From the NCBI GenBank assembly GCA_008632985.1, contig QPGO01000026.1:124001-188000 (forward strand): a DNA stretch of 64,000 nt, read 5' to 3'. Source of the DNA: Psammoneis japonica. Its lineage: Eukaryota. Every line of letters begins with the position of its first letter. Position 1 is the stretch's first letter. Position numbers and translations under genes: made by a program. Under the pieces are notes generated by a model, which was given only the letters and a program-made list of their open reading frames with translations, was not told the DNA's origin and did not search any database. Below, one piece after another: positions 12,561 to 39,398 of the stretch.

Positions 12561-12569
12561 ATCGTTTTG

Positions 12570-15053: not shown

Positions 15054-15551
15054 GATGCTGAATAACTTTTTGTAGGTGAATAAGTGGAAGCGAGGGCTAA
15101 TGATGCAGATGAGTTCTGGGTTCGCATCGTCGAATCATCATCGCTTGGCATCGCGTCGTTCGTGCATCGGGGGGGCGATTCCCGCTCTTTTTTCTGTAGT
15201 ATTTCGGTACATTTTGTGGTATGTAGAAGTATTACTGATTCCATTCGTAGACGGTCGCCTGACTGACACTGACTGTTGGTGGGCGGGAGTGGGATCGTAA
15301 CGGCCTTCGGATGATGACGTGTACAACGGATGTGACAGGCATCTTCGATTGATACGACTGCATGATCGACGATTTCAGCCAGTACAGTAGAGTATGTCAT
15401 AGTACCGGTAATATTTTTCTGCGCTCGCCATGACCGGCAGCCGCAGAGCACCGTTGTCGTCGTTGCTGCAATCGACACCGCTATAATAAAGCACTGTGCT
15501 TGTTATTCACTGAAAATATAATCTCGACAGAACCGTACACAACATTATATC

Positions 15552-17729
15552 ATGACGGAACGCAGCGGTAATAGCAGCTTCATGATGTCGTCCACCACCA
15601 GAACCGGCATTCCAGCCAATTCCACCAATTTGTTGTTATTGGAAGAAGCCGAAGAAGGTTTGGCACAATCTCTTCTGATTTTTTTGTATGCCGATTTGCG
15701 TTTATTGTCTGCCACGGGTCGCATTCACACCAAATTCGAAACGTTATGCATTGATTCCGACATGGAACCGAAAACGACCGCCGCCACGTTGGCTGCCACA
15801 CAAAAGGAACCCCTCGTGTTTGGTCTCCAAAATCAAGACGAGGGCATGTCTCCGGCACACATCATGGCGGCGCTAATGTTGGAAATCCGTCAAGAAATTG
15901 TCGATCACAAGGAAACACTCGGAAAAATGGAAGAAGGTCTCAAGGAAGATTTTATCTTTTTGCGCAATGCCGGTGATAAGAAAAAGATGGAATTTGAAGA
16001 AAACATGCACTCCTTGTTGCAGGCTTATAATGATATGATTAAAAAAGATCGAAACAAGGAATTCAAGGGTGTCCATAATGCGCATTTTAGAGGAGATGCT
16101 TCTTCTTCGTTGGTCAATAAGACGATTGAAATTCCCAATTCGATTGATGAAGATGAAGAATTTGCGGCTGCGGATGCTACCGATTCCGAAGTGCTGTCGC
16201 CGTCACGAGATCAAGAGGAGGAGCAACAACAACAACAACAACATGATGAGGATGATGATGACGATGATTCCATTTCGGTTCCATCACCACCACAACACCA
16301 TCACAATGAATCATCGACCGCGGAAGACGATAGTGATTTATGGGTCAGTGCCCGACGCCTCTTGTTGGAAAAACGAAAATCCTATGCCGAACGACGTAAG
16401 CAACGACAAGAAGCATTGCGTGCCATGGTACACAAGCAAAGCATGTTGCTCTTGCAGGGCGAAGAAGCCGTGGCACACGAGGAGTTTGAACAATTGGGTA
16501 ATTCTCTCTTTGCCGAAGACTACAATAGTGATGCACAAACGTTGGCACCCGATCAAGTCGTGGCACTCATGGAAAAGGCTGTACGGTCACGGGTGCACGG
16601 ACAATTGTCGTTTTTGGCCGACTTTTTCAAACCCGGGACCGTATCGTATGTCATGGCCAAATCCAAAGCACGCGTCGTTTGGCTCAATGATTGGTATCCC
16701 ATCAAGGATGTCATTTATGCATTGTCGGTCGATACGGAAAAGAAACGTGTCCTGGTTGTCTTTCGTGGTGCCATTACACAAGCCGATTGGCATCATGCGT
16801 TTGATCGAAAAACGATCAAAGTACCCAATCCCGTCATGGATGAGTATACGGGAAGAACCAATCACATGAGAGTCCATTGTGGTTTTTATCGTTATCTCTT
16901 TCGTCGTCGTAAAGACACGGGCGGGACTACCAAGTACGATGAAATTGCCAATGTCGTGCACGCGTACGGTATGCGCAAAATTGGTCCCGATTATACCGTG
17001 GCCATGACGGGATTTTCTCTCGGAGCGGCGCTGGCGACCTTTTTTGGTTTGTACGCGTCCACGGAAGAACGGTTTGTTCAAAACGGACCCGTCAAGCTCA
17101 TTTCGTTTGGGAGTCCCATGATTGGTGGACCGTCCTTTGCGGATGCCTTTCGGCATCAAGAAGAACAAGGGAAATTGCAATATGCGCGATTTTATAATGT
17201 ACGGGATTTAATTTCGCATTTGCCCTTCAACGTACGACCCGGGACGGTAAGAAAACAATGTGAAAATGTGTGTGTGTGTGTGTGTGTGTTTGTAGTGATT
17301 TGTGAACAACTCATTTGTCAATACTACCCTTTTTGTTCACATCTTGTTTCAAAGCGCGGAGCTCAGTATGTGCATGTCGGTCTCGCCATTAAGGTTCCAC
17401 GCAAATTTACCTTTTTCTCTCAGTACCAATCCTATTTGCCAAAGATTTATTACGTCCAAAAAGAGGGAGCCTTGGCCTCGTATTGGAGAGCGTGTCGCAA
17501 GAGCTTCATCTGGAATTCACCGTGGCCGTGGAAGATTTCTCGTGTGCATTCGTTGAACCGACATCAGCGGCGTTTGGAGCGTGCGCGGCTGGCGGCCGAG
17601 CGGGATGATGGCCATTTGGTCAACAAGACCTTGGATGAATTGTATGAGGAATTGGTGTACAAGCCGGCGCGAGCGAGAAACGAGAAGAAAACAGCAAACG
17701 AAAATGGAGAGAGGACGTCGAGTAACTAA
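15552..17729 (+). CDS. Class 3 lipase family protein; probable intron 17247-17354
   Basis: VVFRG, VHCGFY, nucleophile elbow TGFSLGAA (GxSxG), SFGSPMIG, DLISHLP, YVHVG, late His (VHSL). GTAAGA...AAAG phase-0 intron contains a (TG)n run. Confidence 0.9.
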   Translation: MTERSGNSSFMMSSTTRTGIPANSTNLLLLEEAEEGLAQSLLIFLYADLRLLSATGRIHTKFETLCIDSDMEPKTTAATLAATQKEPLVFGLQNQDEGMSPAHIMAALMLEIRQEIVDHKETLGKMEEGLKEDFIFLRNAGDKKKMEFEENMHSLLQAYNDMIKKDRNKEFKGVHNAHFRGDASSSLVNKTIEIPNSIDEDEEFAAADATDSEVLSPSRDQEEEQQQQQQHDEDDDDDDSISVPSPPQHHHNESSTAEDDSDLWVSARRLLLEKRKSYAERRKQRQEALRAMVHKQSMLLLQGEEAVAHEEFEQLGNSLFAEDYNSDAQTLAPDQVVALMEKAVRSRVHGQLSFLADFFKPGTVSYVMAKSKARVVWLNDWYPIKDVIYALSVDTEKKRVLVVFRGAITQADWHHAFDRKTIKVPNPVMDEYTGRTNHMRVHCGFYRYLFRRRKDTGGTTKYDEIANVVHAYGMRKIGPDYTVAMTGFSLGAALATFFGLYASTEERFVQNGPVKLISFGSPMIGGPSFADAFRHQEEQGKLQYARFYNVRDLISHLPFNVRPGTVRKQCENVCVCVCVFVVICEQLICQYYPFCSHLVSKRGAQYVHVGLAIKVPRKFTFFSQYQSYLPKIYYVQKEGALASYWRACRKSFIWNSPWPWKISRVHSLNRHQRRLERARLAAERDDGHLVNKTLDELYEELVYKPARARNEKKTANENGERTSSN

Positions 17730-18460
17730 TGATTGGCTCTGATTCAGAAAGGTGAAGCGATGGGCTTCTAGCTTGAATCAAGAATAACGTTCTTGCAGTC
17801 TGCAGTGAACGTGTCTCGCCACTGCAGACAATGAAACGAACTCATCGCCGCGAATGCTCACAGTGTAGTAGACGAGCAGTGACAATGAAATAGTTTGCTC
17901 ATTTGTACGAAAACTAGCTAGCATCATACCAGTGAAACGACTACTGGTACTATGGGTTCTCAAATCGTTCGCTCTATAGTTAATGCCGGCTCAAATCATT
18001 GTGGGGTGGTAAACAACAAGGATTTTTAAATCCTAGCTCTAGAGATTTGAGGTCGAGGTTGGAGGGAGAAAATCGGCACTGTATCTACCGTACAGTTAGT
18101 CGTGTTATTCACTTGTATCCGCGAACAGTTGGTCCCGTCTGATTTTTTTTTGAAAGCACGACGAAGCACAGAAATCCAACAACACGAATCATCAAACATC
18201 ATCAGACCGATAGCGTTCTCATCTCGCGGAAAGCGTGCCATATTTGCTTTGGATCATCAGTCGCTGCTGCTTAGAAAGACGAGACGCTTCAAAAGCAATA
18301 ATCCACGAAACTCAGTAGCTGGAGTGTATTCTTGTGAAGGAAAATAATTTTGCAGTCGATTCTTCAACTCGAAAAACCGCGACTCAAGACACACCTTCTG
18401 CATACCGGTACGGAACAAGGCGTCATCACACCACCAAAAATACGCAATAGTAGATTCAAG

Positions 18461-20809
18461 ATGGGAATCGTTTCTCGTTGCATCGATACGTCTTCCATTG
18501 TGGTGCTGCTGTGTATGCTAGCAAAGTCGAATGCACAGTGCGATTTGGATTGCAATCCTGACGGAGACGCAACCTTGAAAGACGACAACGGCAGTCTCTT
18601 GTGTGTTCTGGGTGACGCGGACTTTTCGAATCACGTCCTTTCAAACGGACTTGTTCTTCCCTTTCACGTCTTGACGAAAAGTCCGGGGGGATACCACTGT
18701 ATCTGCGGCCCCAAACATACGGGATTGATGTGCGGGCGTAGTTTTGAGGAATGCAACGATGGGAGGAACAATAAGTGCTATCACAATGGAGAGTGTCGTG
18801 ACGATGCTGTGGATGCCTTTGGCAACCCCACACCAATCTGTGATTGCAGCGATGCCGTGACTAAGGCACCGGATAATGTGAGGCATGTCGGACAGTTTTG
18901 CGAACATCCCGTCGAGAAGTGCACCGAGAAGGAACCTCTCGGCAACTTGTATTGCCTGAATGATGGGGCCTGCAAGGTTGATGCGTAAGTAGTGAATCAT
19001 CTTACCGTGGGTTTATACTATGACTAATTGACGATACTCGGCCTCTCTCACACATCATGCCTTCATATTCCTCTCGTTACAATTCTGTTTGCGTAGTGAA
19101 AAGTACGCTGCTGCACCTTGCGAATGCCGAGAGGGTTTCTTTGGACCTCATTGCGAGTTTACCGACGAAGCGCTTTTGTATAGTTATACTCTTGAATGTC
19201 AAAATGGCGGAACGGGTATGCGTGGCTTGAATGACTTTTCTCGAGCACTTTTCATGTTTGGCAAATCTGGTTTTGACGAACAAGATTATCAGTATTGTGA
19301 GTGCCCCGATAATCATGAAGGAAGATTTTGCGAAATATATCTCAATGACAACGGAGGCGAATTGTGCGGCAATGCACCATGTCAGCATGGTGGCGAGTGT
19401 GTCAAAATTGTTAACGACGAGTCCGGAACGACCGAGAGACGCTGCGACTGCTCGGCTGCAAACAACAACAACCTTTTATATGGTGGAAGATACTGTCAAC
19501 ACGCGTCCACGTCCTTTTGCTCTCTTAATAAAGACCAAAACGGGAACTCATTTTGCGTCAACGATGGAGTGTGTAGAAAAGGTGAATCGTATGTATCATA
19601 GAATGAACACACCGAAAGGCATTGTGGATAACATTCTGGACCGATTCTTACCATTTGCTGCTTGCTTGTAGGCATTTGGGTTGCGACTGCCCAGCTGGTT
19701 TTTCGGGGCCAATATGTGACATTGTTTTGGATGGCACAGAGGCAACGTTGAAGGAGGTTGAAGAAGAAGCCAAGTGCGAGCTTGATTGTGGCGACGGTAA
19801 TTGCCGCAAGGGCATCAGGGACTCTAGTCTCCTCTTAAGCTTTGGCGACGAACTTTCCTTTCTTGCTGATGATACCAACCCGAATTTTGAATATTGCGTG
19901 TGCCCTCCGGGCTTCATTGGGCCCAGGTGTGAAGTCAAGATTGAGATTTGTGGCACTGGAGAGCGTTTGTGCTTTCATGGATCCAAGTGTGTCGAATTCG
20001 AGGATAGCAAGGCCTGCGACTGTGACACAACGTTCAACTCTCTCACTCAGTTTGCCGGGGCATTCTGTCAGTTTGAGGCGACTTCATTTTGCACCGAGTC
20101 GGGGCAACCGGCTACCGGTGGTCAAGCCAGTAAAGCATTCTGTGTCAATGGCGGGGATTGCTTAGGCACAATCAGTGATGACGACAGGGACGCCACGTAA
20201 GTGAACAGACTTGTCAGCTCGGTGAGCATTCCACAATACTAACTATACTCAACGTTCTTTGTGTAAAATTCCAGGCACCCGGGTTGCGCTTGCGGAGAGG
20301 GTTTTGAGGGAGACCACTGCGAATATTTGATTGGATCCGAGTTCAACCCAAACAACTCGTCTGTCATAACTTCAAATGTTCCCTCGGGATCCCCGTCATT
20401 CTCCCCTAGTTCAAATGTTCCTTCGGGATCCCCGTCATTCTCCCCTAGCACAACTGTTCCCTCGGGATCCCCCACTATGTCATTCTCCCCTAGCACAAAT
20501 GTTCCCTCGGGATCCCCTACTGCCTCATTCTCTCCTAGCACAAATGTTCCCTCGGGATCTCCAACTGAGTCATTCTCCCCTGGTGCAATCATGTTGGATC
20601 CACCTGTCACGTCAGAACCAATGACCGCTTCAATTTTATCGGACTCGCCATCAGCAGCGCCGTCCAGCAGTGCTGCTCCTAGCGATGTCTTATCATCCGC
20701 TCTTCCGACCGACCTGCCGTCATCAGCTTTCAGCTTTGCGGTCAGCAGAAGCGTCGTTGCGATCTTTGTTAACGCCTTGTGGTCAGTTTGGTGCTGGAAC
20801 TCGTTTTGA
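18461..20809 (+). CDS. Secreted multi-EGF-repeat protein with Ser/Pro stalk and possible GPI signal; exons 18461-18984, 19097-19588, 19672-20196, 20275-20809 (691 aa)
   Basis: Signal peptide ending SNA-Q; many CxNxGxC / CxCxxGFxGxxC EGF motifs; three GT-AG introns (TACTAAC branch site in the third) whose phases sum to 2076 nt; PSGSPxFSPS repeats; hydrophobic C-terminus. Confidence 0.9.
20365..20582 (+). repeat. Coding tandem repeat (33-39 bp, about 5 copies) encoding NVPSGSP(T)xFSPS
   Basis: Repeated GTTCCCTCGGGATCCCC...TCATTCTCCCCTAG. Confidence 0.9.
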
Positions 20810-20929
20810 GATTAATGATGCGTGTCAGTAGGTGACTCCTCATCTTCTGCATTGCTAGCAGTAAATTAGAAATGCCTCGCTACCTGAGCAATGAATAGCA
20901 GAGTTGTCCGATAGCTTCTAGCTGTCGCC

Positions 20930-23900
20930 TAAGTTGGGGTTTCCAAAGGGGGGCTGCTTTTCAAATGACCTTCAACATCGGCACGCTCGCAGTGCTCGTT
21001 CTGCAGGAGGGTTCTGCTTTGTGTGACCATTTGCAATGGTTCCGCAAGAACTGACCCTCTCTGCAAGTCACATTCATATCTGAAGTGCGCCGCCAATGTT
21101 TTCTCTCACTGTGAAAGCACTCTGACGACCCGCCGACATCAACAACCACGCCTCATCAAATGATGACACCTGCATTAGACTGCTCCAGTGAGCAATGCAA
21201 TGCACCATCCAACAAAGTGTCACGTTGCTTTTGCATTGTCATTAGCTGCATAAAGTGGGATGCATTGCCTCAGCAAGACAAGCTGGTTGTGCCATGGTGA
21301 ACAAACAAGAAGCCCCATCATGAGCAATGAGATGACCATTGCAACAATTTTTAGGTGTTCTCTGTTCTGGATGTCACAATGTTGTCAGTTGTTACACCAA
21401 AGCTGTGTGTGTTGATGATCCATGGCAAAAACTGGCAGAGACGCATTGCTTCTTTCCAGATTGACATGCCATCTTGGGACTCCTCCATTTTTTCTCAACA
21501 AAAGTTTCCTGCAAAAAGAGAGATGTGTTGCACTCTAAAGACCTAACTCCCAACAGCAATTTTCCAATTTTCAACTCCACCAAGTGCGCTGATTCTTGCG
21601 CTGTGCATCAACATCCCTTTCATCACACACTGGAACAGAACTGCCTTTTTGGGATGATTGTTTGAGCACTTTGGTCTGCTTTCATTGTCCTGGTGACCAC
21701 AGCATGTGCATCTGTTGTCTGGGCTGTGTCCATCACAAACACAATTGCACCTGAGCAGCCCAACCACAGTTTCTCTCCTTGATCAGCACAAGAGCTGAGT
21801 TGGACAAAAGCCACAGGTTTTGCCACAGCAGAGCTTGAAATGACAAAGCAACACTCCCTCATGCTTGCTTGCATGGGTGTCATTGGCAAGCTCTGGTGTG
21901 TTGTTGGAGTGATTCATTTTGTGCAGAGAAAGGTGGACATGCCTTGCCGTTGACTGTTTGCATGGCAGCTGCCCTTGCACTGCATGTTTTTGGCTTTTTG
22001 GCAGGACAGCAGGACTCGCCAGCTGCACTTCTTGGACTCAAAATGAGACTGATGTCAAAAAGTCCACTCCTTCATGAACTCACACCAACATTTCTCTCCA
22101 TTTTAATCTCAAGACCTGGGCTTGCGGTGCTTTGGCGACCTGGATTCTGGTGTGAGAGACACAAATCAAGCATGAGCATCAGTGACAACAACACAACAAT
22201 TGCAAGACAGAATTGTTCAAAAACCCAGTGGGGCAGCCTCCAACAAATTGAGTGCACATGCAAGACAAAATGACAACATGAACCAAATTTTGTTGGAGGC
22301 AGGCACATCTGCATTGCAGTCACTTGCACCGCCAGAAGATGCCATTGCTGTTGTGATCGGAGAGTCATCAAGATTCCATTTTAGACAGAACCTGCAAGCT
22401 TTTCATCATGCTTTAGACAAGTGATGGAAAGCTTTAGGACAAATCCTTGCCTTTTGCCAGTGGAACATTCACTTGGTTTCACTTCTTGTTGCATGTTTTG
22501 GTTGTTGCCTTTCTGGGTGCCCTGTGTCTGCACTGGTGGGGTGCAACTGTCATCTAAGATTCTGTGATGCAGCTGGGTCAACGAGGACCAAGCCTGCTTC
22601 TGCCTTCCTGTTTGCCCCTTCCTGTGTGAAAGCAGTCCTCTTTGCATTTGGCACAATTTGGCTTCAACGGCAGCAAGTTGTCTCATGGAAGTTGGCCAGA
22701 GATTTGTTGGAAGGAGCAGCTGACGATGTCATTCCCCAACACTGATTTTGTGATGCACTCCCATGTGCAGCCATTGTCATTCATGTTTTTGTGCAAAACA
22801 CTCTTTTGGTGTGCACATTTGTCTGACCCTTGTCCACTTGACCATGCCTCATGTCATGGCCACTTGACCAAGAATGAGGGGCACATGCCCAATGTTTGTG
22901 CTCCCTTTTAATTGTGAGAGTCTGTGGTGTGGCATCAAGTGCCACCAGAAAGATGCCTCAAGAGGGGTCTGTCGCCACTTTTTAGATCATGATTTTCTGC
23001 CAAAAATCATTTTCCCCTTGCTTTTGTCACGACAACCATGACAACAGAAGATGACCCAGGTGAGCAAAAAGCAGCCCTTGGAGGTCACAAACTCTTGATT
23101 GATGTCAGTTCCTCACATGTCAGAGGACTCACATGCATCAAAAGTTTGTGACCTCCCTGTTGCATTTCTGAGAAAAACAGATTCAGGAACAAGCCTCAGC
23201 AGTTTCGATCAAATCATGGCCACAATTTAGATGCAAGAACTTTCAAACACATTGTCCATTTTATTGCACCTGTTGTCAACCATGTCAGCAGTCACTGTGT
23301 CATGGTGAGGTGTTTGAGACAAATCGCAAGCCTTCATCATGGTCGAGTTGACGGGGTGCCTGATTTTTTTGAGTTCTTGACGCGTGGTGCGTCACAAAGA
23401 TGTGCAAGCTGTTTTGGAACAACAAGCTATTTTGGAACAACAAAAGCAGGGGGTGACCCCAAATCAAGACTCAGACATGGTGCTGTGGGATGGGATCCAC
23501 CCCAGCTCAATTCAATTCAATCCTGTGTTTGCAGGATCCACCCCAGCAATGATCCTTTCTGACAAGAGAATGTGGGGTTTTTGTTGTGATCGCAGTGGGA
23601 TTGAATGGGTGGTCATGTGCGATTGGAAAAAGTGTTGGGGGAGGGAAGAAAGTTGCCTGGGGTGGGCTGTGTCATTGATTGACAGCTGTTGAAGCTTGAA
23701 AGGTTGGCGAAATCAAGGTGTTCAAGGGCGGAGAGAAAGGGAGTTGGGTCAAAGGAGGAGTTGTGTGCGGAGAAGGACAACAATGATGAAAATGGTGAAA
23801 ACCGAGGCAACGCGAAGGATGTGCCGCATGAAAAATGGCCAGTGTAGCGGCGGAGGGTCAGGAGGCCATTTCGGGAGGTGCAGCGAAGTGCTGCCGATGC

Positions 23901-24000
23901 TTTGAACTTCGAAAGCACCATCTGGCCAGCGAAGCGTGCAATTTTAGACTGAACTGGTGCATGCTAAATTTTTCTACGTCTGCTCTCGCACCGCACGGAG
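20930..24000. other. TpA-depleted degenerate repeat/TE debris, unclassified
   Basis: TA dinucleotides drop sharply after the EGF gene; no recognisable domain; includes a mutated paralogue (22377-22600) of 29480-29701. Confidence 0.55.
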
Positions 24001-24016
24001 TCGCGGCCATGGCGCT

Positions 24017-26205
24017 GCTGTGGGTGGGGATGCCGTAGAAATCGCGCAGGTGCCATTTTTTTAGTGAAATCAACCTCTCTGCCCAAATGGACCATGGCGG
24101 TCATCGACATCGTGACAAAAAAAAAGTGTCATCATCGCAATTCATGAGGCTCAACGTGTGGTCACAATGCGCAAGGCCGGGCTTCCAACTCCCGCCACAA
24201 CGTTCGCTAAGTGACCACCAAGTCAACCTGCCGTTTCTCACCAAATCGCTTTCGTGCCCTCAGAATCGCTGTTTCAGACAGCCCCTTCAAAGTGTTACAT
24301 CCACCATCATCTCATTGGGTGGAATGCTGCGAGGGGCCATCTCGAACAACGATTTGGTTGAGATGTTAAAAACAATGTCGACACCTGACCAACAAACATG
24401 CCGTTTCGCACCACATCACTTTCGCACCCTCAGGATCAACACAAAAAGATGTGCATTTGATGCCATCATGTCCGCCGTCATCGAATTGGGCGAGGGGCTC
24501 CAAAGTGTAATTTTTAGCGGCAGTTTCATCGAGTGATTTTGAAATGTCTGCGAATGACCTCACATCTCGTCTGAACATCATGCCGTCATCCAAATGGCAC
24601 CTTCACGAGAAATGGTTTCGTCGCATGCTGGAAACAAAGACCACAGAGACTCAATCTATCAGCAAACAACTTGCCATCATGATGAAAGCTCTGAGAAAAG
24701 GATTTTTGGGCTCTCAAACTCTGAGATGTTGAGAGCGATCGATTGCGAGTTCACGACAAGCAACAAGCATTCCAACACTGCGTTTTTGGCCACATCAACA
24801 GGAAGAGCGACACTAAGAGGCACATTGTGGAGAGCAATGGGTGGTTGGACATGGTTGGAGAAACACGGTGCTGCAGCAGTGGTCATGGCGTTTGACGAAC
24901 AAGGACAAGCAGCGACCGAGGAGGACAAGGTTTGGACATGCAAGCGCTCATACGACATTCACGAAATGGGCACATTGTGTGTGATCCCAATGTGTTGACA
25001 ATTGGCACCAGCATGGAGGAACATGCCAACTGCAAGTCGACTTTGTTGACGCAACAAAGACCATCAAGGAACGGTGTCCGCACGCAAAGGTTGTCGGCAG
25101 TGGTTCAAACCTTTCGTTTGGATTCCGAGGAGCAACGAAAATCCGCGAATCAACTCATGCCGTGTTCTTGAATCATGCAATCGTTGAGTCTGGGATGCAC
25201 TTTGGCATCATGAATGCAAAGGAAATGCTTGCTGTCGATGAATTGGATGACAACACGAGGGTGCCATGCGAGAATCTCGCACTCAACAAGACCGAGGATG
25301 AGACAGATGAGATGCTAAAGCAAACAGCGTACAAAAGAGCATGCATTGATGCCAGAAAGAAGGGCTTGCCTCTGCCTTGGAAGCCCCATGGCAAACCTGC
25401 AAACAAGCCACGCCTTGCATTCTCACATGACAAAGTCATCTCCAAACCTGCCATCGAACCGCCTCCACCGATGCCAACGTCAGAAGCTGCAAAGAATCAT
25501 GTCCTGAACAGACAAGCAGAAAGAACAAAATGGCAGAGCTCATTGTGCTTTGAAATGAGAACTTAGTTCCACCGCGAAATGGGCGTGCATTGGCACTCGG
25601 TGGATTTTTACATGGTGAAGCATGGCAAAAGAGAGAAAGATGCCATTGATCGTTCTCTGCAACTGGAGAGACAGCTGAATTTGCAGATGCATTGTTAGAT
25701 GCGTGATTGATTCCACTTTTGATGTCGGTCACTTTTGGCATCATAACAGCCGCAATGTCATTCCAAAACTACAAACGAGACATCAAGGATTTTCAGTCAT
25801 GATTACACAGTGAAGTGCGGCAAAAGCAACAAAAGCACTGTTTCACGTTCTTTCCAACTACGGAGTCAGGTGACTTGGCAGATGCATCATTGGAGATGCG
25901 AGAGCCTCTGCTTTTGACATTGGCCAGTGTCGGCATGACAAAAGTTGCAGTGACATTCCAAAACTACAAATGAGTGACGGCAGGATTTTTGAAAAATCGA
26001 AACATTTTCAGTCGTGACTGCACGGCAAAGCATGGGAAAATGGCGGTCACTTCATCGATCTCGTTAACGATGAATGCAAGGCAATTGAAAAAGTCACCCC
26101 CCCATTTTAAGACCACCGTAACACCCTCTATCGACTGAGGCAACTCTCGTTTCGATCCAAGAAAATTCATCTCTACGTGATTTCTACGGCGTCCCCTCCC
26201 ACAGC
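24017..26205. mobile_element. Non-autonomous TIR element carrying a METH fragment (Pack-type)
   Basis: About 33-bp imperfect TIR GCTGTGGGTGGGGATGCCGTAGAAATCGCGCAG / CTACGTGATTTCTACGGCGTCCCCTCCCACAGC; TSD not resolved. Confidence 0.75.
24855..25500 (+). pseudogene. METH: Captured fragment of cobalamin-dependent methionine synthase (pterin-binding domain)
   Basis: [18 protein letters not shown]...[39 protein letters not shown]...GIMNA across three frames, with internal deletions. Confidence 0.9.
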
Positions 26206-26212
26206 TCTGCTG

Positions 26213-28218
26213 CACAGCAAACGAGACTTCACGGAAATGCATGGAATGAGCCTTTTTTTCTCACATTCCGCTGTGCTGTTCCGCAAACAACAAGGCCATT
26301 TTGCACATTTCGTGGAGGCCTCTTTTAACGGAATGTGCTCCACGTTCCGTTTTCGAGAAGATGCTCAAGGAATGTGAAAAGCATGTTCCGTGTAACCATC
26401 ATTCTCTTTGCATTCCGTGATGACAAACGGAGTGCACTAATGCGAGTTTGAACACTGTCGGCATTCCGTCACATGTGCATCAGCAACAGAATGGGGCATG
26501 GTTGGCAAGAGCACACACATGTGCACTGCTGCACAGCAGAGTGAGACTGCCGCAAGAGAAAAAGAATTGTCTGCATTTTTAATGACACTGCTGATCATTT
26601 TTACCAATCGGCCATCTGGCCGTGCGATGATGGAAGCGACGGCAACGGCGAAGAGACGCACCACCGAGTCTCACCGGCACGCATCTTGTCTCTTCATTCT
26701 CTTGTTTCGCCTCTCTTTGATGCTTTTTCTGTGTTTTCGTTTTGGTCGTGGAAAGTTAATCTGTGATGTCATGTCCGCATGCACACATTCAACGCATGAT
26801 TCAACAATGAAGACAGCAGACGCATTTCGGTTAAACATGTTAAACAAGATTGGAATGAGAAGCAAGTCATCAGTCTGCACATGTCAAGACTCTAGTGCAA
26901 CACAAGGACACATTTAACATTGAGAAATAGAGACTCCTTGTTTGGAAGTGTGGAGAAAACCATCGTGGAATTCTACGTGTTTTTTTGGAATTGGTGGCTT
27001 CTACGCAAAATGACACTGGAGCGAAGTCTTCGCATTGGCGTCTTTTTCCTCTCTGCACTCATCTCAAAAACTCTCTTCACAGTTGAGGCCATCAAACGAA
27101 CGACAACGATGAGGACAACCAGCGTGAAGAAGAGGTGGAGGGGGTGCTCATCCACTCACACTTGATGGCAAGTTAGAGGATGCTGGCTGAGCGATTCATC
27201 ATTCGTTCAAAACTTCTGAACCACCCACAAATGTTGCTTCTCATTTTCATTTTGTGACACAGCCCTTTCACAAATCATGAATGCCGAGCGTGGCTGCGAT
27301 GTTGCTCGGAGCACAGCAGAGTGAGACACTCTATCGCAGCGAACTGCATTCTTTGATGACAGCAGTGTGAGAAGTGCCATTGTCGAATTCGCCGTGTCAC
27401 ACTTCAGAATCATGATTGAGGGTGAGTGCCGAGATTTTTTGGGGTGTTGCTGTGTTGTGTCTCACCACACATTCCCATTTGCTTCACTCACATCGTCTCA
27501 TTCTTCTGCCATTGTTCTTCTTGTAGACTCACAAGCTTGTCTTAAGAAGTGTAGAAAATGCCCAAGCTGCTGCTGGTCCCCGCGGACTCCGTCAAGATCA
27601 TGCAGGTGGACGAGAATTGAACCCCCGAGCAGTGAGAACTCGGCACGTGCAAGGTTCTCTCCATTTGCCCATGTCATTGGACTGTTGCTTTTTAATGGAG
27701 TTTGCTGCGTTTGGTGAATGTAAGACAGCAAAGAGTGACTCCAGAGGCTCGCGAGGGCAGAGCAACTCCGCTCTCGACATGCAGCAGCTAGAGCAGAGCA
27801 GACAAAAGCAGCAGACACCACAACAGTGCCATGTTCCGACAGCTTTCCACACAGTCGATACATTCCAAGCAGCACTCCGTTCTTTTACTTTGGTTGTGAC
27901 ACAGCACATTCTGTGTTGTGCGAAATGTCAATTCCGTTCCTTCCACGGAATGTGTTGAACGGAACACAGCAAACGGATTGGCAATCGGAACACAAGAAAA
28001 AAGGCCCATTTTAGACCTGCGGATTGAGGCCTCGGAACATGCTTGTTCCGTGAAGTGACAGGGAATGAGAACGTACGTTGCAACATGAATTCGGAATGTG
28101 AGCTCCATTTTTCTTCTTGTCCCGTGATGTCATACGGTACGGTATTCCGTGACCCCCTGGTTTGGCCACGGAGTGGCGCGCAAATTCCGCGCATTTCCGT
28201 GAAGTCTCGTTTGCTGTG
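26213..28218. mobile_element. Non-autonomous TIR element, EnSpm/CACTA-like (a Tc1-like reading is also possible)
   Basis: Perfect 28-bp TIR CACAGCAAACGAGACTTCACGGAAATGC; TG on both flanks (2-bp TSD); many subterminal TTCCG/CGGAA motifs at both ends. Confidence 0.9.
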
Positions 28219-28347
28219 TGCTCGCTGCTCACGCACAGCTCACGATCGTCAATCGAGCGCGAGAGGGGAAAAGGGTGCTCTTAAACCGATAACAGCTTAA
28301 TTGAATCGACTTGCTTGAAAGTGCAACGTTCACCTTTGTCAAACACA

Positions 28348-29487
28348 ATGCCCCTTAGTGACGAGTCACCGTCAAACCAGACCGGCGCTTCAACTAACGA
28401 AACTCCGTCCGCCACTTCGTCATCGACTCCTTCAACTGCAACGTCCCCATCGACTCCGTCCACGCCTGCGACTGACAAGACTGCATCGTCTTCGTCATCG
28501 CTCTCCGTTGTCTCATCGGATCCAATGGCTCGTCCTTGCACCGACAAGCACGTATGGGAAGGAATGGGCGGTGGCGGTGGAAACGTTGTGGCTCTTACAG
28601 GGGGCGGAGTTGCGACGTCGCAGGCGCAGGTCATCATGCCACACCCGGTTGTGCGAGCACGAGTTGTTGATTCAATGTCGCGCCCCCGCAAGAAGCACAA
28701 AATGTCAATTGTGGACGCCCTGAACCGGTTCAATTCCATGTCTCGTGAGGAGCAGATCGAGTCCTTGCCGTTTTGTCTCGTAGAATTGACGCTGGAAGAG
28801 TTCCACGCTCAATGTGATGCTCTAGAAGGTGCCGGATGCTCTCGCTGTGAGTTTCGAGACGGTGGAGCCTGGATTTACGAGCTGCCACATGCTGCTCATG
28901 ATCGCGCTGCGCAAGAAGTTATCAGAGAGCTTGATCGGCAGTTGGGCAATCGTAGCAGAGATTTCGCGATTGCGGCAAGCCCAAGATGTGATAACAATGA
29001 TGCCAACTGGTCCTATGAGCCGGATGGATCGCTGACAACCCGACGCTTCCGTCCAGGACGAGACAATGTCGACGCAGCCGACAGCTCGGGAAATCGATGG
29101 CCAAACCTCATTGTTGAAGTAGCATATTCAGAGTCGGAACAGCACGTTCGCGCCAAGGCCTTGGATTGGTTGAACACAGCTCAGAACCCAAACCATGGTG
29201 TTCAGCGGGTGATTGTCATCAAGATCGAATACCCAGGGCTTACTTATGGTCAAAGGACACTGAAAGCTTGGCGGTATGAGCGTGGTGCAGATAACAACCC
29301 AGTGCAGGAAATCGAGTTTAGAAACCACGGTCCAAACAACGGTGCCGCTCAAGCTGGAATTCCCGGGATGCAGCTCCATATCCCGGTTAGGAGTTTATAC
29401 CTCCCACTTCACTCGCCTGATGGTTTGGTTGAATCACTTTCTCTCGACTTATTCTACATTCGGACAATTATCGAGGAGGCATTTTAG
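28348..29487 (+). CDS. Uma2/DUF820-like PD-(D/E)XK endonuclease-fold protein with Ser/Thr-rich N-terminus
   Basis: PHAAHD, YEPDGSL, WPNLIVEVAYSES...KALDWL, VIVIKI; intact single-exon ORF. Confidence 0.75.
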   Translation: MPLSDESPSNQTGASTNETPSATSSSTPSTATSPSTPSTPATDKTASSSSSLSVVSSDPMARPCTDKHVWEGMGGGGGNVVALTGGGVATSQAQVIMPHPVVRARVVDSMSRPRKKHKMSIVDALNRFNSMSREEQIESLPFCLVELTLEEFHAQCDALEGAGCSRCEFRDGGAWIYELPHAAHDRAAQEVIRELDRQLGNRSRDFAIAASPRCDNNDANWSYEPDGSLTTRRFRPGRDNVDAADSSGNRWPNLIVEVAYSESEQHVRAKALDWLNTAQNPNHGVQRVIVIKIEYPGLTYGQRTLKAWRYERGADNNPVQEIEFRNHGPNNGAAQAGIPGMQLHIPVRSLYLPLHSPDGLVESLSLDLFYIRTIIEEAF

Positions 29488-30347
29488 ACAGAACTTGCAA
29501 GCGTTGCATCATGCTTTGGATAACTGATGGCGAGCTTTAGGACAAATCCTTGCTTGTTGCTACGTACAGTAGAGCGTTTATTTGGTTTCACTTCTTGTTG
29601 CGTATTTCGATTATTACCTCTGCCTAGTAGATGCCCTACATCTGCACCGGTAGGGTGCAACTATTATCTAAGATCCTGTCATTAAGGACCAAGCTTGCTT
29701 CGACGAAAACTTGCTCAGGTGCGTAACCTCGGATAAAAGAAACTGACTTTTGAGCCATCCTTGATGCTCAGAGGTGCATAAATCGTCTTGTCGTCCGCGC
29801 GTGTGCTTCCTTGCGCGCAATCAACGCGCGAACGACAAAACGATGAGGTGGCTCACGGACGTGGATCTGCTACGAAAGCCTCTGTCACGACGACGTGCTA
29901 TCCCCCATGAACAAATCCGTCTGTTTTCCGACCGATGGTGCCGCACACGGCACCATAATCGCCACCGTAGAACAATGCTGAATTTGCCGTAGAGAATCTT
30001 TCCGTTGGAACAATTTTCGATCGCTAAAACTGCCTCCGACAATTCACCTCCGAAGATGAGGTGATGCCTTCAGACATGCCCGAAAGCTGTGTCAATGAAG
30101 AACACTGTGTGCACGTTAGTTGCTCAGCTTCTGAGGAATGAATGCTGAATCAATTTTGAGCGGGGCGTTCTGTTTCGCCTGTCAAGGGAGACGAGTTCAG
30201 CGGTCTCGATTTCCGATCGCTTGCACTCGGCGTCTTGTGTCTTGCTCCGAGTGCCAAGCACCAAGTTGCATTTGGAACACAGAACAACAACAACAAGACA
30301 AGCCATTGCATCAAGGTTTTTGAAATCGCGAGTGCCTGAGTGTTGCC

Positions 30348-32000
30348 ATGAATGGATTGTCAGTTGATTTCATTCCTTCGTTGGAGTCAGATTGGTTGCA
30401 TTGCTACGAGGAGAAAACGGATGTTGCTTTTTCCAAAGAAGATCTTCATTTGTTTCTTGATTCCATGCAGGACAAGTGCTTGACGGAATCGACACAGAAC
30501 CGTCCAACGTGGCATGCAGATGATGACTTTGGGAAAGATGTGAAGATGCCATTTGGCGAGGCCCGTGCAGAGGTGTGGAAAGCAGCAAAAGATGAGACAA
30601 AGGGGTGCAGAGCGCGGGTGCAGAAAATGATTGGGAAAAGTTTTGACGAAGTCGACGATCCTGTTGAAGATCTTCTTCTCTTGGATGTGGGAAAGTCAAG
30701 TCCATTGATGCAGTTGCTGCAGTCAGAATGTGCTTTGTCTTTTGAAGAGACCGCATCTTTCATGTCTGCACATTGCATGCAAAAAGCACACGGATTCTCG
30801 GTTGATCGACTGTGCGACGGCAAGTGCGACAGACTCGACAGGTCTGGGTTGATGGATGAAGAGAAGCACAAGGCAGATTGGAAAATGATTGGCAAATCAC
30901 CTTCAGAAATGGCGGCACGTAAAAAGACAGCTTTCTGGGAGAAATTCCAAGATCGGTTCAATGAGTTGTGTCAAAATGTTAATGTGAGTGACAGTTTGAA
31001 TTTGATTGTGTCTCTTGACGATGACAAGAAGAAAGCTGCGGTTGACAATGGTGCAGACATGCAGGGTTTAAAGCAAGTCGTCCACACTGACAAACGCAAA
31101 GGAATCATGGGCCACACCGCAGTGTCTCCCGCCACACTTCTTACTTGCGGTGTTTGTTGGGAGCAAGAGGGCGACACTGCACACGACTGCTGCGCAAAGC
31201 TTGTCAAAAGAATTTTTGGCAATAAACCTGTGCTTGACAGGGGTGCTTTTTGTTCTGACCGTGGCCATTGGACACTTAAGTTGCTTGTCTGTCTGTTGGA
31301 GAACGGGGCTGAAGTTCATGGTGCGGTGTGTCATCAACATTGGCATCAGTTTGCCTGCGATCAAGATTTGAAGACAGGTGATCCACGGACATTGATTGAC
31401 AAAGTTGGGCCATCGACTCTTTACACTGGCACAGGGAAGGTTGCAGATTGGGACATTTGTCTGAATGCATGTCGAAATGGCACAAATGGTGACAGCAAGG
31501 GGATGGGAACAGTGCAAGAGCACCTGCTGACAGGCCAATGGTGACTCCAGCCAGGCCTTCAGAAGCAAGACAGTGGCTGAGAGGCTCGATTGAGCAAGAG
31601 GACACCGCCACAATTGCAAAGGAGTCCGGCAAGTCCCCCAAACGCGGCATTTTACCCGCTCTGACAAACCAACCAAACACTCTTGAAAAAGCACATCCCC
31701 ACAAGCACTTCAAGCATTGTAAAGGCATGCCATTGCCTGGAGCATGCCCTGACACAGGGAACGATGCTGGATCCGGAGGCTTGGGTCATTGCATTCTTTG
31801 CAAGAGAAAGACCCACTTTTTTTGCTCTGACTGCAGGAACTGGTTTTGCCATGACAAGTCACGTCCTGACGACACCGGAGCTCCACATTTTCGAGATGCT
31901 GCAACACATCAAAATGGAAATAATCAAATCACTGGCAAGCACACGTGCTTTGTGCAGTGCCATCAGACGACATTGTCTGACTTGGAAAAAAGACATGCAC
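30348..32000 (+). pseudogene. Divergent DDE/DDD transposase (piggyBac-like), internally deleted and hypermutated
   Basis: VSLDDDK, CSDRGHW (DRGY with Y to H), VHGAV, and C-terminal Cys cluster CILCKRKTHFFCSDCRNWFC resembling the piggyBac cysteine-rich domain. Confidence 0.6.
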
Positions 32001-32784
32001 CAGAACAAGCAACGACACTGTTCACACCCCATTGTTCTCGGCACTCACCTTGGTCAATCTTTCAACACGAAAGAGGCGGCATGGACACCGGTGCGAGTGG
32101 TGCGGAGGTGAAAACACACACTCCGTAGTGTCGTTCCTGAACATCCTTCGTGTCCTGCCGTTGTCAACAAAACCATTCGTGCCCCATCATTGTCAACAAT
32201 GTCAAGTGCACTGCATCATTCGAGACACAAAAGGCGATTGTCAGATGGTGGGCAATGTTGGGGGAAAGAGGCATTTGGCACAAGGAAACAACATTCATCA
32301 ACTGTGGCAATGACAAGCTGCGATTTGCAAGTCGGTTTTCGCCATTTTTTGTTCTTGGCATGCACCTCACTCATTCTTTCAAAACACACACTTGTTGACC
32401 ATGCAAAGACTTTTACAAAATGTCCCTGCATGTCTCTGGGTGTGGCTTGGTTGACAAGAAGGGCAACCAAGAGGCACAGCAGCAAGAGTGATGTGGAGGT
32501 GTTGCAAACAAAAAAAGTGAAAAAAAAGCTGTGTAAAACACCAGTGCATGTCCTACGAGGGTGTTCATGGTGCCGTGTGCGCGCGGCACCATAATTTTCG
32601 ATGGTGCCGCATGCGGCACCGTGCGCACATGCGGGCTACACGCGAGAGAATTTTCATGGGGCGAAGTTCCAAATTTTTCCAAATTCGTCGCGACACAACG
32701 CGTGCCAAACGACAAGTTTGCGTCCACATTCTGCCATGCCCATCAGCACAATCACTCATGCTGACATCATTTGCTCCACACAAC

Positions 32785-34075
32785 ATGCCAAGGTCACAGT
32801 TGCTGGCATGTGATCTGTGCCAGTGCAATTGGAGCGAATGCAAAAAGTGCTGTGCCGACATTGCGAAGTGCTGCATTGACACACAAAACACCGCATCCGT
32901 TGTTGGGTCATTGTCGTGTTCCAGATGGGACGAAGAAATCTACTGTTGCATTGAGAGCATCATTTGTTCGTCTGCTTGGGGGAGGGTTCAAAGGAAAAGG
33001 TGAAATGGTCATTGCAAGGCATCATTTTTACCTCAAATTGATGGAGAGGACAGGAACAGGCAGTCCATGTGCCTCAGCACGGATGACGGAGGGCATGTTC
33101 AGTTGGATCCTTTGCCTGGTGCTGGAGGGACGTTTGGCAACATCACTGCTCCCATGGATGCAGATGCTGCCCATGGCATGGGCATTGTGCATGATTCTGA
33201 ACGCATCATTGTGGAGGAAAATGCTGCTTCCGACAACAAGTGTGGACACACACAAGCGCCGTTGGCATCAAGGAAGGATGTCCAAGGCATCATTGATTCA
33301 TTCACTTCAGAAAGGACAGCTTGGGACATCATAAGATCATCAGCAGCAGTGGACAATGAAGGAGACAATGCAAGTGCCGAGGAGGAGGTTGTTCCAGAAT
33401 GGACCGGTCCGTTGGTGCCATCTGTCGTGCAACCAGTCAACAAATTGAGTGGTCTGCACATGCACACATTGAACCAAACTGATGTGTTGGATGACAAGAA
33501 GGAGAGGGAGTTCAGGTGCCACCCAGAAACTGCTGCTATTTTGAAACTGCATTGCAAGCATTACGACAAAGCGGACATTTTCCCTCTTGGACGCAACAAC
33601 CACAATGTGCAAGTGCACTTGCGTCCGTGTCAGCATTGTGCTCAAGGCGATCACTCGACTGCGTGTGCCATGTTTTCCATTGTCCAAAAAAGGAGAACAG
33701 ACCATGGACACTGTGAGGGCTGCGATTTGCACAACCGATCTGTGAAACGTCGCAAGACCATGGAGTCCAAGTCTCTAGATGAGATTCACCCATCAACCCT
33801 GCTGTTCTCGTGAAAATCTTGAGAACAAAATGTCAAGAGTGTCAAACAATTTGAGGAAGGCAAGGGGCAGGCTGAAGTCATTGCAGAAACTCTTAAATTC
33901 TGACAAGGACCGGCTCTATCTTGGTGACAATGACGACAGTTTGCGAGACCTGCTGTTTGACACCTCCAACTGCTGCAAAGAGAATGAGACTGCAGTTCAC
34001 AAAAAAATCCTGGAGTGCATTGTCCTGCACCTTGTAGAAGCAGAGGGTGATGGTGGTTCAATGTCAGAGCAGGGG
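32785..34075 (+). pseudogene. Second, truncated ORF remnant of the 29769-35427 element (Cys-rich segments plus coiled coil)
   Basis: Consecutive frameshifted + strand ORFs from MPRSQLL to NLENKMSRVSNNLRKARGRLKSLQKLL; ends at the tandem array. Confidence 0.4.
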
Positions 34076-34079
34076 GTGA

Positions 34080-34935
34080 CATGTGGCAGTCCAAACCATG
34101 CCAAAGCACATCCACAAAAACAGCAGAATGATGCTGACACCAATTCATGACGCAAGCAAGACTGCCTGTTCCGCTTCAAACAGGTCCCTTGACATTTCCT
34201 GTTGGCAATGGCACAAGCAGCAAACAAAAGAGTCCGTGAGAGCCTTTCTTTCATGTGCAGCTGGCTGTCCAAGCCATGCACGGTAAACAGCAGATAAGAT
34301 GAGCTCACAAATGTGTGCCATTTTGCTTCGATCAAACAACAGATGCAACCAAGCCACTTCAGAATAGATCAACTAACAGATGCTTCCTGTGGCAATGGCA
34401 CAAGAAACAGACAACAGAGTCCGTGAGTGCATGTCTTCAACATGTGGCTGTCCAAGCCACAAACTGTAAAAAGCAGAGAATGCGAGCTCACAAGACATGC
34501 GCACCGTTTTTTGAATCACCAGAACAACCGATGCAACCCAAGCAATTCAGATTGAATGAACCAGCAGATGCTTCCTGTGGCAATGGCACAACAAATAGAC
34601 AATGGAGCCCATGAGAGTGCAATGATTCTTTGACATGTGGCCATCCAAGCCATGAACCGCAAAAAGCAGAGAGTGCGAGCGCACGAGAACTGAGCACCAT
34701 TTTGCTTCGCCCAAACAACAATTGAAACCAACCCAATTCAGACCCATCAACTGACAGATGCTTCCTGTGGCAATGGTGCAACAAATAGAAAATAGAGTCC
34801 GTGAGAGCATTGCTTTGATTTGCCCAAACCATGAACTGCAACAACAGGAAAAAACGAGCTTGCAAGAACTGCGCGCCGTTTTGCATCACCCAAACAAGAC
34901 ATGCAACCAAACCCACTCGGATTCGATCAACCTGC
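34080..34935 (+). repeat. About 189-bp tandem repeat, roughly 4.5 diverged copies
   Basis: TTCCTGT(T)GGCAATGG recurs at about 34196, 34384, 34572 and 34762 with colinear downstream sequence. Confidence 0.9.
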
Positions 34936-35780
34936 AGTTATGATGCTGCTGGACCCCTTTGACATGTTGTAACTTGGGAGATGTTTGATGCCGGGAAGGC
35001 ACAATTGCCGGGCAAAATTCACCCTGAGAGAAGCCAATGACGAAACACCTGACGGCAACAACAAAGAAAAAAACACTGAGGTCGTAAGTCTAAATTGCAC
35101 ATTTTCTCCACAACCAACAGTCCTGCTGCACTTTACTTGCCATCACAAATGAATCAGATGTCATAGATTCAGAAGGAAGCAGTGAGTCGAGGTGCCACAG
35201 CTCTGCTTTCGAAAGAGAGCTGCGTGATGTGTTGATGATGCGTCGTGTTGTTGTGTGAGATTTTGGCGATCAGACCGCTTTTCGCCCCATAAAAATTCTC
35301 TCAGGTGCGGCACGTCGTGACAGCGAAACATGCCAGCGTGAGCCACCTCATCGTTTTGACGTTCGTGCGCGCGCTGAGTGTGCGAGTGCGCGTGTGCGAA
35401 CGACAACAGACGATTTGTGCACCTCTGTTGATGCTCCTCTTTATCTCATTGAGAGTGTTTGTTTCCACAATCATGAGTTCACCAAGAATGAACCTAACTG
35501 CTTGATTCCGTTTCCTCCACTTGTCCACTTTGCACGACTCTCAATGCGTTCAACTTCTGCGGGCAATTTGAAATTCCCGGAAACAGATGCTCATGATGAT
35601 CTACAGGATCGGACAAAAAATATTGATTAAATTCTTTTATAAAGCCTTGAAGGTATTTTATGCAGCCTTAAATGTTTCGAAAAATGAGAACCCTTCTTCA
35701 CTTTTCTTCTCGAGATCAACATCGCTTCTGTTACTGTGTCAACAGCTTTGGTCAAAGAGGAACGCTGGTCCACCTCAGCA

Positions 35781-37760: not shown

Positions 37761-38551
37761 GGCGCAACTGTTTTAACCGATATAATTTATAATTTGCTTC
37801 TATCATCAAATTGTTTGTTCTTGAAATATCCATACCAAACGGCATCTGTCAACTAAACGTTTAATCCTGGAATGATCTCTGTTGCTTCATTACTTCAGAT
37901 TTACGTAACGTAAGACCGTGTATGAAAGAGCACAAATTGTGGGTCCGACCATGGACCCCTCCTTTATCAAGCTTTTCAAGGGACACCAAAAAACCAAGCC
38001 ATCAATTTGACAAATGAAGGCGTGAAGGTGTTCTTGGCGATGATCACGGAATTGGAGTTGGCGCTGATTGAAGATGGTGCGACCGCCTCAATAAAGCCAA
38101 GAAGGAGGAAGAAACTATGAGCGCACTGCTCGTCGAGCTTGCTTCTCAGCACCCCCCATGACACCCAACACCATGGCAGAGAGTATCCCTAACATTGAAC
38201 ATGACAACACCCGGCACCACACCAGTTCCACAAGAAACGGCTGACTTCCGGTTCGTCGTCTTCCACAGTAAATATCTCAAGACACCTACAGGGCCTTCCG
38301 CTTCTCTTGTCTGATCGAATATCGGTAGCGTCTTTTCGAATGCACAGTGTGGTGGACTTGTTACCATGATCATCAGCTACATTCAAACATGCCATACCGC
38401 TCTGGTCACATTGAATCGTCTCGTCAAATGTTTATGTCTCTTTTTTAAGCAAAAAGGAATCAAATTATTTGGTTTTAATCGTCCACTTGCAAGATACCTA
38501 GTAGTTGGGCAGAAACATGGCCCTACTCAAGCACATATGGCGTACTCCGTT

Positions 38552-39031: not shown

Positions 39032-39190
39032 GTTCACCGTTCGTGTCAATGGGGGCTAAAGCAGAAGCACACTCTTCAACGACAGCGGTCAGTAACATTG
39101 TGACATGATGGCACAATAAACCCTTTCAGTTTTCAGAAAAAAGGCCAAACCACAGCATGCCGTACATAAAATACGTAGAATTCTACGTTT

Positions 39191-39398
39191 TGGGGGAAGT
39201 CTCCAGCCAGCTGCTGGCTGAAAAAAGTCTGCTCGTCAGTGCGTTCGGGGGTTTTGCCAGTACAATTTTTATGTACGAAAAAGACGTCGAGTCTGTCCAG
39301 CGCTCGCCAAAACCCCCTAACGCACAGATTGACAGACTTTTTCGGCACAAATTCTACACAAGATTCTTCAGCCAGCAGCTGGCTGGAGACTTCCCCCA
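39191..39398. mobile_element. 208-bp foldback MITE
   Basis: Perfect IR of about 32 bp TGGGGGAAGTCTCCAGCCAGCTGCTGGCTGAA, inner IRs AAAAAGTCTG and GCGTTCGGGGGTTTTG; GTTT on both flanks (4-bp TSD). Confidence 0.88.

Follow-up and report, generated by a model that had tools for sequence, protein, structure and literature searches.

About two-thirds of a 64,000-nucleotide stretch of the Psammoneis japonica assembly GCA_008632985.1 (contig QPGO01000026.1, positions 124,001 to 188,000 of the forward strand; hereafter the window, whose own numbering is used throughout) is nearly devoid of the dinucleotide TpA (TA), with TA odds near 0.1 (0.03–0.15). The depletion is confined to TA-purged blocks, which alternate with TA-normal gene islands (table 1). 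Over all purged blocks pooled the odds are 0.11 for TA, 0.51 for CG and 1.66/1.62 for TG/CA, with single kilobases down to TA odds of 0.03, and GC content is 0.495 in the blocks versus 0.471 in the gene islands. We interpret this pattern as the product of a fast A:T to G:C change at TpA that follows insertion, affects either strand, is limited to blocks and prefers TAY (Y, pyrimidine); to this reading, its direction included, we assign a probability of about 0.7. Central to it is a pair of homologous sequences of some 240 bases, one copy lying in a purged block (the 22-kb copy) and the other at the end of an Uma2-like gene within a gene island (the 29.5-kb copy).

The first-pass annotation, made from the sequence alone, had aligned 29480–29701 with 22377–22600. 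Self-blastn of the window recovers this homology (22377–22568 vs. 29480–29682, 78% identity, E = 6.7e-41), and a more sensitive blastn extends it to 22357–22568 and 29460–29682 (E = 6.8e-43; identity across runs 76–78%) and finds nothing further alignable in the flanks. A MAFFT alignment of the first-pass intervals, with 211 aligned columns, contains 37 mismatches (30 transitions, 7 transversions). TA in the 29.5-kb copy corresponds to TG in the 22-kb copy at eight sites, to CA at three, to CG at one and to a gap at three, with TA in both copies at three further sites; the reverse, TG in the 29.5-kb copy and TA in the 22-kb copy, occurs at one site. Ten converted sites and one reverse site had been counted by eye, so that the tally rises to 11 and the single exception remains, and both example strings quoted at the time are present in the sequence. 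Four CG sites of the 29.5-kb copy are TG or CA in the 22-kb copy, with no site showing CG in the 22-kb copy opposite TG/CA in the other. In the aligned pair, this amounts to 18 versus 4 TA and 7 versus 1 CG (29.5-kb vs. 22-kb copy); a sign test gives p = 0.006 for 11 against 1 and p = 0.003 for 12 against 1. The 29.5-kb copy consists of the last approximately nine codons, the stop codon and the 3' flank of the Uma2-like open reading frame (ORF), and it contains stop codons in all six frames. It is thus essentially noncoding, which bears out the earlier statement that protein selection is not the cause of the difference. The same stops rule out the 240-bp repeat as a coding exon. The 101-aa ORF that lies over the 22-kb copy exists because TAA and TAG stops were lost.

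Outside the TA, TG, CA and CG sites the two copies differ at 17 of 119 positions (14%), and they are old cousins, not the before and after of one molecule. Homologs of the Uma2-like protein reach at most 64% identity in metagenomes, the sole named relative being from Seminavis robusta (46%), and tblastn found no second copy of this protein in the window. Contig depth, counted at 80% or more likeness, is 156–392 over 28276–29520 versus a single-copy depth of 59, which suggests that the source genome carries 3–6 Uma2-like paralogs; past 29520, the 3' flank of the gene is at single-copy depth, and at 22300–22548 the depth is 100, owing to one extra contig. The 22-kb fragment may descend from one of the Uma2-like paralogs and not from the 29.5-kb copy itself. 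A 251-base contig from a marine sediment metagenome (run X3) equals 29451–29701 with one difference, an extent close to that of the repeat (29460–29701); other pieces from this run over 22300–29750 are 39–145 bases long and far less alike. This contig could be a chance placement of one fragment, or the element standing alone elsewhere.

Information on the direction of change that is independent of the pair comes from a degenerate copia-type long terminal repeat (LTR) retrotransposon. Its open pieces (41713–47525) follow the order gag, protease–integrase, reverse transcriptase, RNase H, with Pfam traces of gag_pre-integrs, SH3_retrovirus and RVT_2, one RVT_2 piece alone scoring above the curated cut-off. 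A search with its ORF 43060–44775 against 1.84 billion representatives yielded 1834 relatives; the best 150 of these, minus three hits with less than 1% Tyr, gave an alignment of up to 147 homologs, and columns were taken as conserved when half or more of the homologs agreed on the residue. At the 15 conserved Tyr columns the window element has no Tyr, showing Cys (TGY) at seven, His (CAY) at six and Phe at two, and at the remaining conserved columns it keeps 326 of 455 residues. Over its matched part of 328 aa Tyr is absent, and the TA odds there are 0.09. In every one of the 33 related copia loci from metagenome contigs the whole-locus TA odds lie within 0.46–0.89, and 20 full-length ones have 2.4–5.2% Tyr and TA odds of 0.33–1.02. 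A kinesin motor fragment in the same purged block is a dead piece of a host-type gene: aligned with kinesins of known structure, it has Cys in place of two conserved Tyr, and its P-loop reads GGET for GKT, the Lys having become Glu via GGT-GAG, a TA to TG change that spans the codon boundary. Because of the copia Tyr test, the TA content of the relatives and the kinesin fragment, TA is taken to be the ancestral state in the blocks. That the 22-kb copy lost its TAs is indicated also by the flanking context of the surviving ones, which is the block-wide class, and by TG-versus-CA doublets in repeat pairs, both described below. Three of the 150 best copia-like relatives (P0142, P0195 and P0262) have themselves less than 1% Tyr, with Cys and His raised, like the window element; a TA-erasing process may act in other sampled organisms.

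The timing and speed of the loss can be read from repeats. The two LTRs of a retrotransposon are identical at the moment of integration. In the copia LTR pair, 24 of the 28 mismatches fall at sites that are TA, TG, CA or CG in both copies (among them 7 TG-vs.-CA, 9 CG-vs.-TG/CA and 1 TA-vs.-TG), and elsewhere 4 of 131 positions differ. The same was seen in the 279-bp direct repeats at 5917 and 10035, with 17 of 20 mismatches at such sites and 3 of 136 positions elsewhere; five sites are TG versus CA, three are half-converted TAs and four are TAs kept. Because CG is almost untouched in this pair (19 of 23 sites kept, 4 lost), its doublets are attributed to former TAs that each copy resolved alone. 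Over the 12 recognizable TA sites, 13 of 24 site-copies have been lost, versus about 1% change per copy elsewhere, so that by hand calculation on this pair TA is lost roughly 35–70 fold faster than other positions change, a lower bound because conversions of both copies in the same way are invisible. Between these direct repeats lies a 42-bp tandem array, one site of which reads TA in 12, TG in 10, CA in 4 and CG in 1 of 27 units cut out, the units not being independent owing to higher-order duplications. An 886-aa open frame without a Pfam match (6978–9635, forward strand) is made up mostly of this array (14 aa per unit) and is flanked by the two 279-bp repeats; it is either a gene or an effect of stop-codon loss. 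For the repeat at 24043–26283, other genomic copies have TA where the window has TG (five sites) or CA (five sites), with the reverse, TA in the window, at three sites, as counted over the 40 best-supported variants among those listed.

The loss follows a flanking-base rule. With TA in purged blocks expressed relative to gene islands, the ratio is 0.00–0.08 for RTAY (ATAT, GTAT/ATAC and GTAC; R, purine), 0.07–0.27 for the mixed classes RTAR/YTAY, 0.17 for CTAG, 0.53 for TTAA and 0.36/1.03 for CTAA/TTAG. A model with four parameters, in which the base 3' of the A determines how fast the A on each strand is lost, accounts for 90% of the variance over 10 site classes (rates T 2.07 > C 1.26 > G 0.57 > A 0.25). 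The preferred target is 5'-TAY, with TTAG/CTAA and TTAA largely spared, and the TAs that survive in purged blocks lie within TTTA/TAAA. The 240-base pair conforms to this: all three conserved TAs are in these spared contexts (TTAG twice, CTAA once), the 11 lost ones include no member of the TTAG/CTAA/TTAA classes (Fisher p = 0.003), and TTAG is likewise the context of the lone TA "gained" in the 22-kb copy. Both DNA strands are affected about equally, as seen in the copia element with its 7 Tyr to Cys versus 6 Tyr to His changes and TG odds of 1.57 versus CA odds of 1.45. A runs test over the purged blocks gave no sign of long one-strand TG or CA tracts (z = +2.4, slightly over-alternating), and the overdispersion of TG/CA in 300-bp windows is 1.08 in purged blocks versus 1.65 in gene islands.

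The blocks are sharply delimited, with edges that fall within tens to a few hundred bases: TAs end at 20930 and are sparse beyond, they resume at 11468 after a gap from 10891, and the last TA at 39991 is followed by the next at 40457. Noncoding pieces of the gene islands have TA odds of 0.57–0.91 versus 0.44–0.54 in the adjoining coding DNA. The island carrying the Uma2-like gene sits between two purged blocks, and since the 29.5-kb copy has kept 19 TAs through 14% divergence elsewhere, its survival points to protection, not youth; repeat pairs with 2–3% divergence at other positions have already lost most of their TA. The 29.5-kb copy was probably spared by its place in a TA-normal gene unit and not by chance, in agreement with the first-pass observation that one partner of the duplicate escaped, unlike in repeat-induced point mutation (RIP). 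The block that holds the 22-kb copy contains a high-copy repeat (24043–26283) as well as purged single-copy DNA (22549–23544; depth 58.9 in run X1 at 80% likeness, where contigs may hide diverged copies), and purging does not seem to need duplication. The purged targets comprise the copia-type element, a Plavaka-like ORF, the kinesin fragment, the gene-flank fragment and unannotated single-copy DNA; no viral genes were recognized in the window.

A separate and slower layer of change in the purged blocks is the decay of CpG to TpG or CpA. Blocks with TA odds uniformly below 0.2 vary in their CG odds from 0.04 to approximately 0.9. At 48001–57000, TA odds are 0.03–0.07 and CG odds 0.04–0.46 (0.04–0.23 except in one kilobase), and TG and CA odds reach 2.0–2.2, whereas the purged DNA at 57–64 kb has CG odds of 0.58–0.83 at TA odds of 0.03–0.20. 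The two layers are distinguished because of this contrast and of the nearly intact CG sites in the 5917/10035 pair. The CpG layer resembles the decay of methylated transposons driven by 5-methylcytosine, in that CG has become TG or CA in the purged blocks; such decay cannot remove TA, however, and here it varies independently of TA loss. Diatoms are described as carrying RID-related DNMT4 genes of unknown function (PMC9998398), which could bear on the CpG layer, not on the loss of TA.

Table 1. Positions of the features discussed, in window coordinates
Feature	Position	Strand	Details
TA-normal (29.5-kb) copy	29460..29701	+	19 TA; TA odds 1.01
TA-purged (22-kb) copy	22357..22600	+	4 TA (all TTAG/CTAA); TA odds 0.24; CG odds 0.15
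Uma2-like gene	28315..29487	+	Pfam Uma2, E 2.7e-9
Degenerate copia-type LTR retrotransposon	40628..47840	+	LTRs 40628-40866 and 47602-47840; TA odds 0.11
Kinesin motor fragment, pseudogene	48332..48862	+	Pfam E 1e-13; within purged block
Unit bounded by 279-bp direct repeats	5917..10312	+	repeats 5917-6195 and 10035-10312, 92% identical; partly purged
Tandem array, 42-bp unit	7949..9338	+	33.5 units (TRF)
Gene islands, 16.7 kb	1-2000, 11401-21000, 29201-29900, 35601-40000		TA odds 0.56; CG 1.01; TG/CA 1.19/1.18
Purged blocks, 42.4 kb, first half	2001-3200, 3801-6000, 9001-11400, 21001-28000
Purged blocks, 42.4 kb, remainder	30001-35600, 40001-64000
Purged block with 22-kb copy	21001..28000		TA odds 0.15
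Purged block	30001..35600		TA odds 0.07-0.30
Purged block	40001..64000		TA odds 0.09; CpG loss variable
TA-normal gene island	11401..21000		copine, class 3 lipase, Cys-rich ORFs; noncoding TA odds 0.57-0.91
TA-normal gene island	35601..40000		sharp edge at 39991/40457
TA-normal island, Uma2-like gene unit	28000..29900		TA odds 0.42-0.79; CG odds 1.06-1.24
Copine with C2 domain	ORF 12570-14834		Pfam
Class 3 lipase	ORF 15552-17729		Pfam

With TAA and TAG stops almost gone, the purged blocks are filled with overlapping ORFs of 80–600 aa in all six frames. A Pfam scan of 106 of the 112 long ORFs, leaving out six that overlap the tandem array, gave no match for 104 of them, the two that matched being the kinesin fragment and the Plavaka-like ORF. 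The latter is one of several open frames (599, 197 and 323 aa) at 59738–62821 on the reverse strand, in which Tyr is almost absent; its match to Plavaka transposase is weak (E = 2.9e-4, under the curated cut-off), and the region may represent a DNA transposon that has been purged. The purged block at 30.0–35.6 kb, just past the 29.5-kb copy, is enclosed by a CG-rich inverted repeat of approximately 90 bases (29769–29857 on the forward and 35337–35427 on the reverse strand, 78% identity, E = 1.4e-11), whose arms may be the terminal inverted repeats of an inserted 5.7-kb element. Among the 120 best homologs of the copine in the gene island, the named ones are all from diatoms, at 43–67% identity, with none closer. 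Together with the Seminavis robusta relative of the Uma2-like protein, they mark the source as a diatom-like eukaryote and not a chlorarachniophyte. Over the window, ARAGORN found no tRNA or tmRNA gene, and no Rfam family reached its gathering score.

Several points weigh against the interpretation proposed here. The 240-bp pair is without an outgroup, and the direction of change is not settled by the pair alone; the first-pass claim that the pair polarizes the change holds for the direction, on the strength of the independent tests, and fails for the pair by itself. A 21-base block common to both copies had no exact match in metagenome contigs. The TA odds of the 29.5-kb copy, at 1.01, exceed the gene-island mean of 0.56, and at single sites some of its TAs may be gains. 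It should be noted that the baseline of the context model is gene-island DNA and not the true ancestors of the blocks. The purged DNA is in part single-copy and of obscure origin, as reflected in the lack of Pfam matches in 104 of its 106 scanned ORFs, and a status as foreign DNA has been shown for some blocks only; the term "targeted" rests on composition and on repeat comparisons in one 64-kb window.

One alternative is a genome-wide neutral bias against TpA, from which genes and their flanks are shielded by selection and which involves no targeting. TA is indeed under expectation even in the gene islands, and much of the purged DNA is unannotated and part of it single-copy, as such a bias would allow. 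Against this, noncoding DNA within the islands has TA odds at or above those of coding DNA, the block edges are abrupt, and the 29.5-kb copy has kept its TAs at a divergence several times that of repeat pairs (14% vs. 2–3%) which lost most of theirs; we consider an untargeted bias unlikely. Misread modified bases in silent DNA, with the TAs really present, would be another explanation, and the sequencing runs carry no platform or read-level record. Two runs of one sample nevertheless match single-copy parts of the window with 0–3 differences per 600–1800 bases, TG or CA is fixed site by site, the converted sites differ between repeat copies, and the coding consequences fit dead elements, so that such an artefact is scarcely credible.

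Two hypermutation systems known from elsewhere were also weighed. RIP resembles the process in the window in its fast, context-specific transitions that kill transposons after insertion and in its sharp limits. A RIP-like change of C to T at CpA/TpG, with TG and CA ancestral and the TAs of the 29.5-kb copy newly made, would yield the same aligned differences, and the TpA/ApT index of that copy (1.06) is above the cut-off usually applied for RIP, 0.89. RIP, however, creates TpA and lowers GC, whereas in the window TpA is destroyed and GC is slightly higher; it also needs duplication and hits both copies, whereas in the window one partner of the pair escaped and apparently single-copy DNA is purged. 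Moreover, the (CpA+TpG)/(ApC+GpT) index of the 29.5-kb copy is 1.28 versus 1.22–1.25 in gene islands, so that it lacks the CA/TG deficit expected if TG and CA had been ancestral, and the case named at the first pass as refuting its reading is accordingly not borne out; CG would have to have been gained at four of its sites; the Tyr test and the composition of the copia relatives show TA loss in the blocks; and the surviving TAs of the 22-kb copy obey the block-wide context rule. We regard a RIP-like origin as highly improbable. Restriction by APOBEC3 or ADAR is similar in that selfish elements are hypermutated with a dinucleotide preference. APOBEC3 changes C, whereas A:T pairs are changed here. 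ADAR-like A-to-I editing, acting on the RNA of retroelements and made permanent when that RNA is reverse transcribed ahead of integration, would agree with the largely retrotransposon nature of the named purged DNA and with the usual preference of ADAR for U before the edited A (as given in the discussion of 10.64898/2026.01.13.699255). Such editing is confined to RNA and one strand, whereas both DNA strands are affected about equally in the window (as seen in the Cys to His balance and the TG and CA odds), the two copia LTRs have resolved the same sites differently and thus after integration, and DNA other than retroelements is purged too (the kinesin fragment, the 22-kb copy and the Plavaka-like ORF), which makes it quite improbable as the source of the pattern.

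The closest parallel to the proposed post-insertion change at TpA is found in mutation-accumulation lines of the chlorarachniophyte Bigelowiella natans, in which two integrated viral regions are reported to mutate at approximately 1000 times the genome rate (Mettrop et al., bioRxiv 10.64898/2026.01.13.699255). According to that preprint, 230 of 231 changes in the viral regions are A to G or T to C, all GC-biased changes occur on TpA and produce TpG or CpA, the larger viral region is single-copy, the genome contains 124 TpA-poor, CpA+TpG-rich clusters enriched in reverse transcriptase and DDE domains, and an ADAT2-like deaminase is proposed; its main text does not contain the words "diatom," "stramenopile," or "context." On the basis of that account, the two cases share A to G and T to C changes at TpA in discrete regions, a GC-ward bias and a long-term trace that is TpA-poor and CpA+TpG-rich in transposon-type DNA, and probably also an effect on single-copy DNA. 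They differ in host, the window being from a diatom-like genome, in degree (the nucleocytoplasmic large DNA virus region of B. natans has a Rho of 0.45 in the preprint, whereas the window is near saturation at TA odds of 0.03–0.15), in targets, which in the window include an LTR retrotransposon, a gene-flank fragment and a kinesin pseudogene, and in that rates were measured directly there and are inferred from repeat pairs here. To what the preprint describes, the window adds the post-insertion timing, the flanking-base rule and the separate CpG decay. By analogy, a process of this kind seems to have acted on the window, here in a diatom-like genome; a full-text search of the literature found no report of TpA loss in diatom repeats.

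The most probable sequence of events is as follows. Transposon-rich, presumably silenced blocks mutate fast after insertion; an A:T pair of TpA changes to G:C, on one strand or the other, which leaves TpG or CpA, with TAY lost fastest, and gene units including their noncoding flanks are exempt. The 22-kb copy would be a fragment of an Uma2-like 3' end that was placed in a purged block and then purged, and the 29.5-kb copy, lying in a protected gene unit, would have retained its TAs. The underlying chemistry may be the deamination of adenine in DNA to hypoxanthine, which would then be copied as G. An ADAT2/TadA-like deaminase is one example of an enzyme that might do this; it would be directed at silenced or foreign chromatin and serve to defend the genome. 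TadA acts naturally on the UACG anticodon loop, and the first base editors derived from it favoured YAC, which would fit the TAY rule. We put enzymatic DNA adenine deamination forward tentatively, as somewhat less than an even bet. In an alternative chemistry the T of TpA would be modified and then mispair with G; this leads to the same duplex change, and sequence does not separate the two. A bolder proposal is that a natural DNA adenine deaminase system with a TAY preference, guided by chromatin or RNA, is common to diatom-like algae and chlorarachniophytes or arose in each separately, and that it removes TpA from invading DNA once this has inserted; we hold this to be possible and on the whole doubtful.

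TpA-specific hypermutation of foreign DNA had been reported once before, in the 2026 preprint on one chlorarachniophyte. With the same signature in the window, the process would not be confined to one species; it may span the stramenopile–alveolate–rhizarian group or have arisen repeatedly. The saturated signature provides sharp edges that can be compared with chromatin marks, repeat pairs from which the process can be timed, and a flanking-base rule, with TAY lost fastest and TTAG and TTAA spared, to which every candidate enzyme has to conform. For annotation, TA-free DNA misleads gene callers with its many long spurious ORFs, and the real genes within it are dead, with Tyr turned to Cys or His. 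If a guided deaminase system is indeed responsible, it would be a duplication-independent, GC-raising counterpart of RIP, and the enzyme behind it would be nature's own adenine base editor, working on chromosomal DNA in its double-stranded form.

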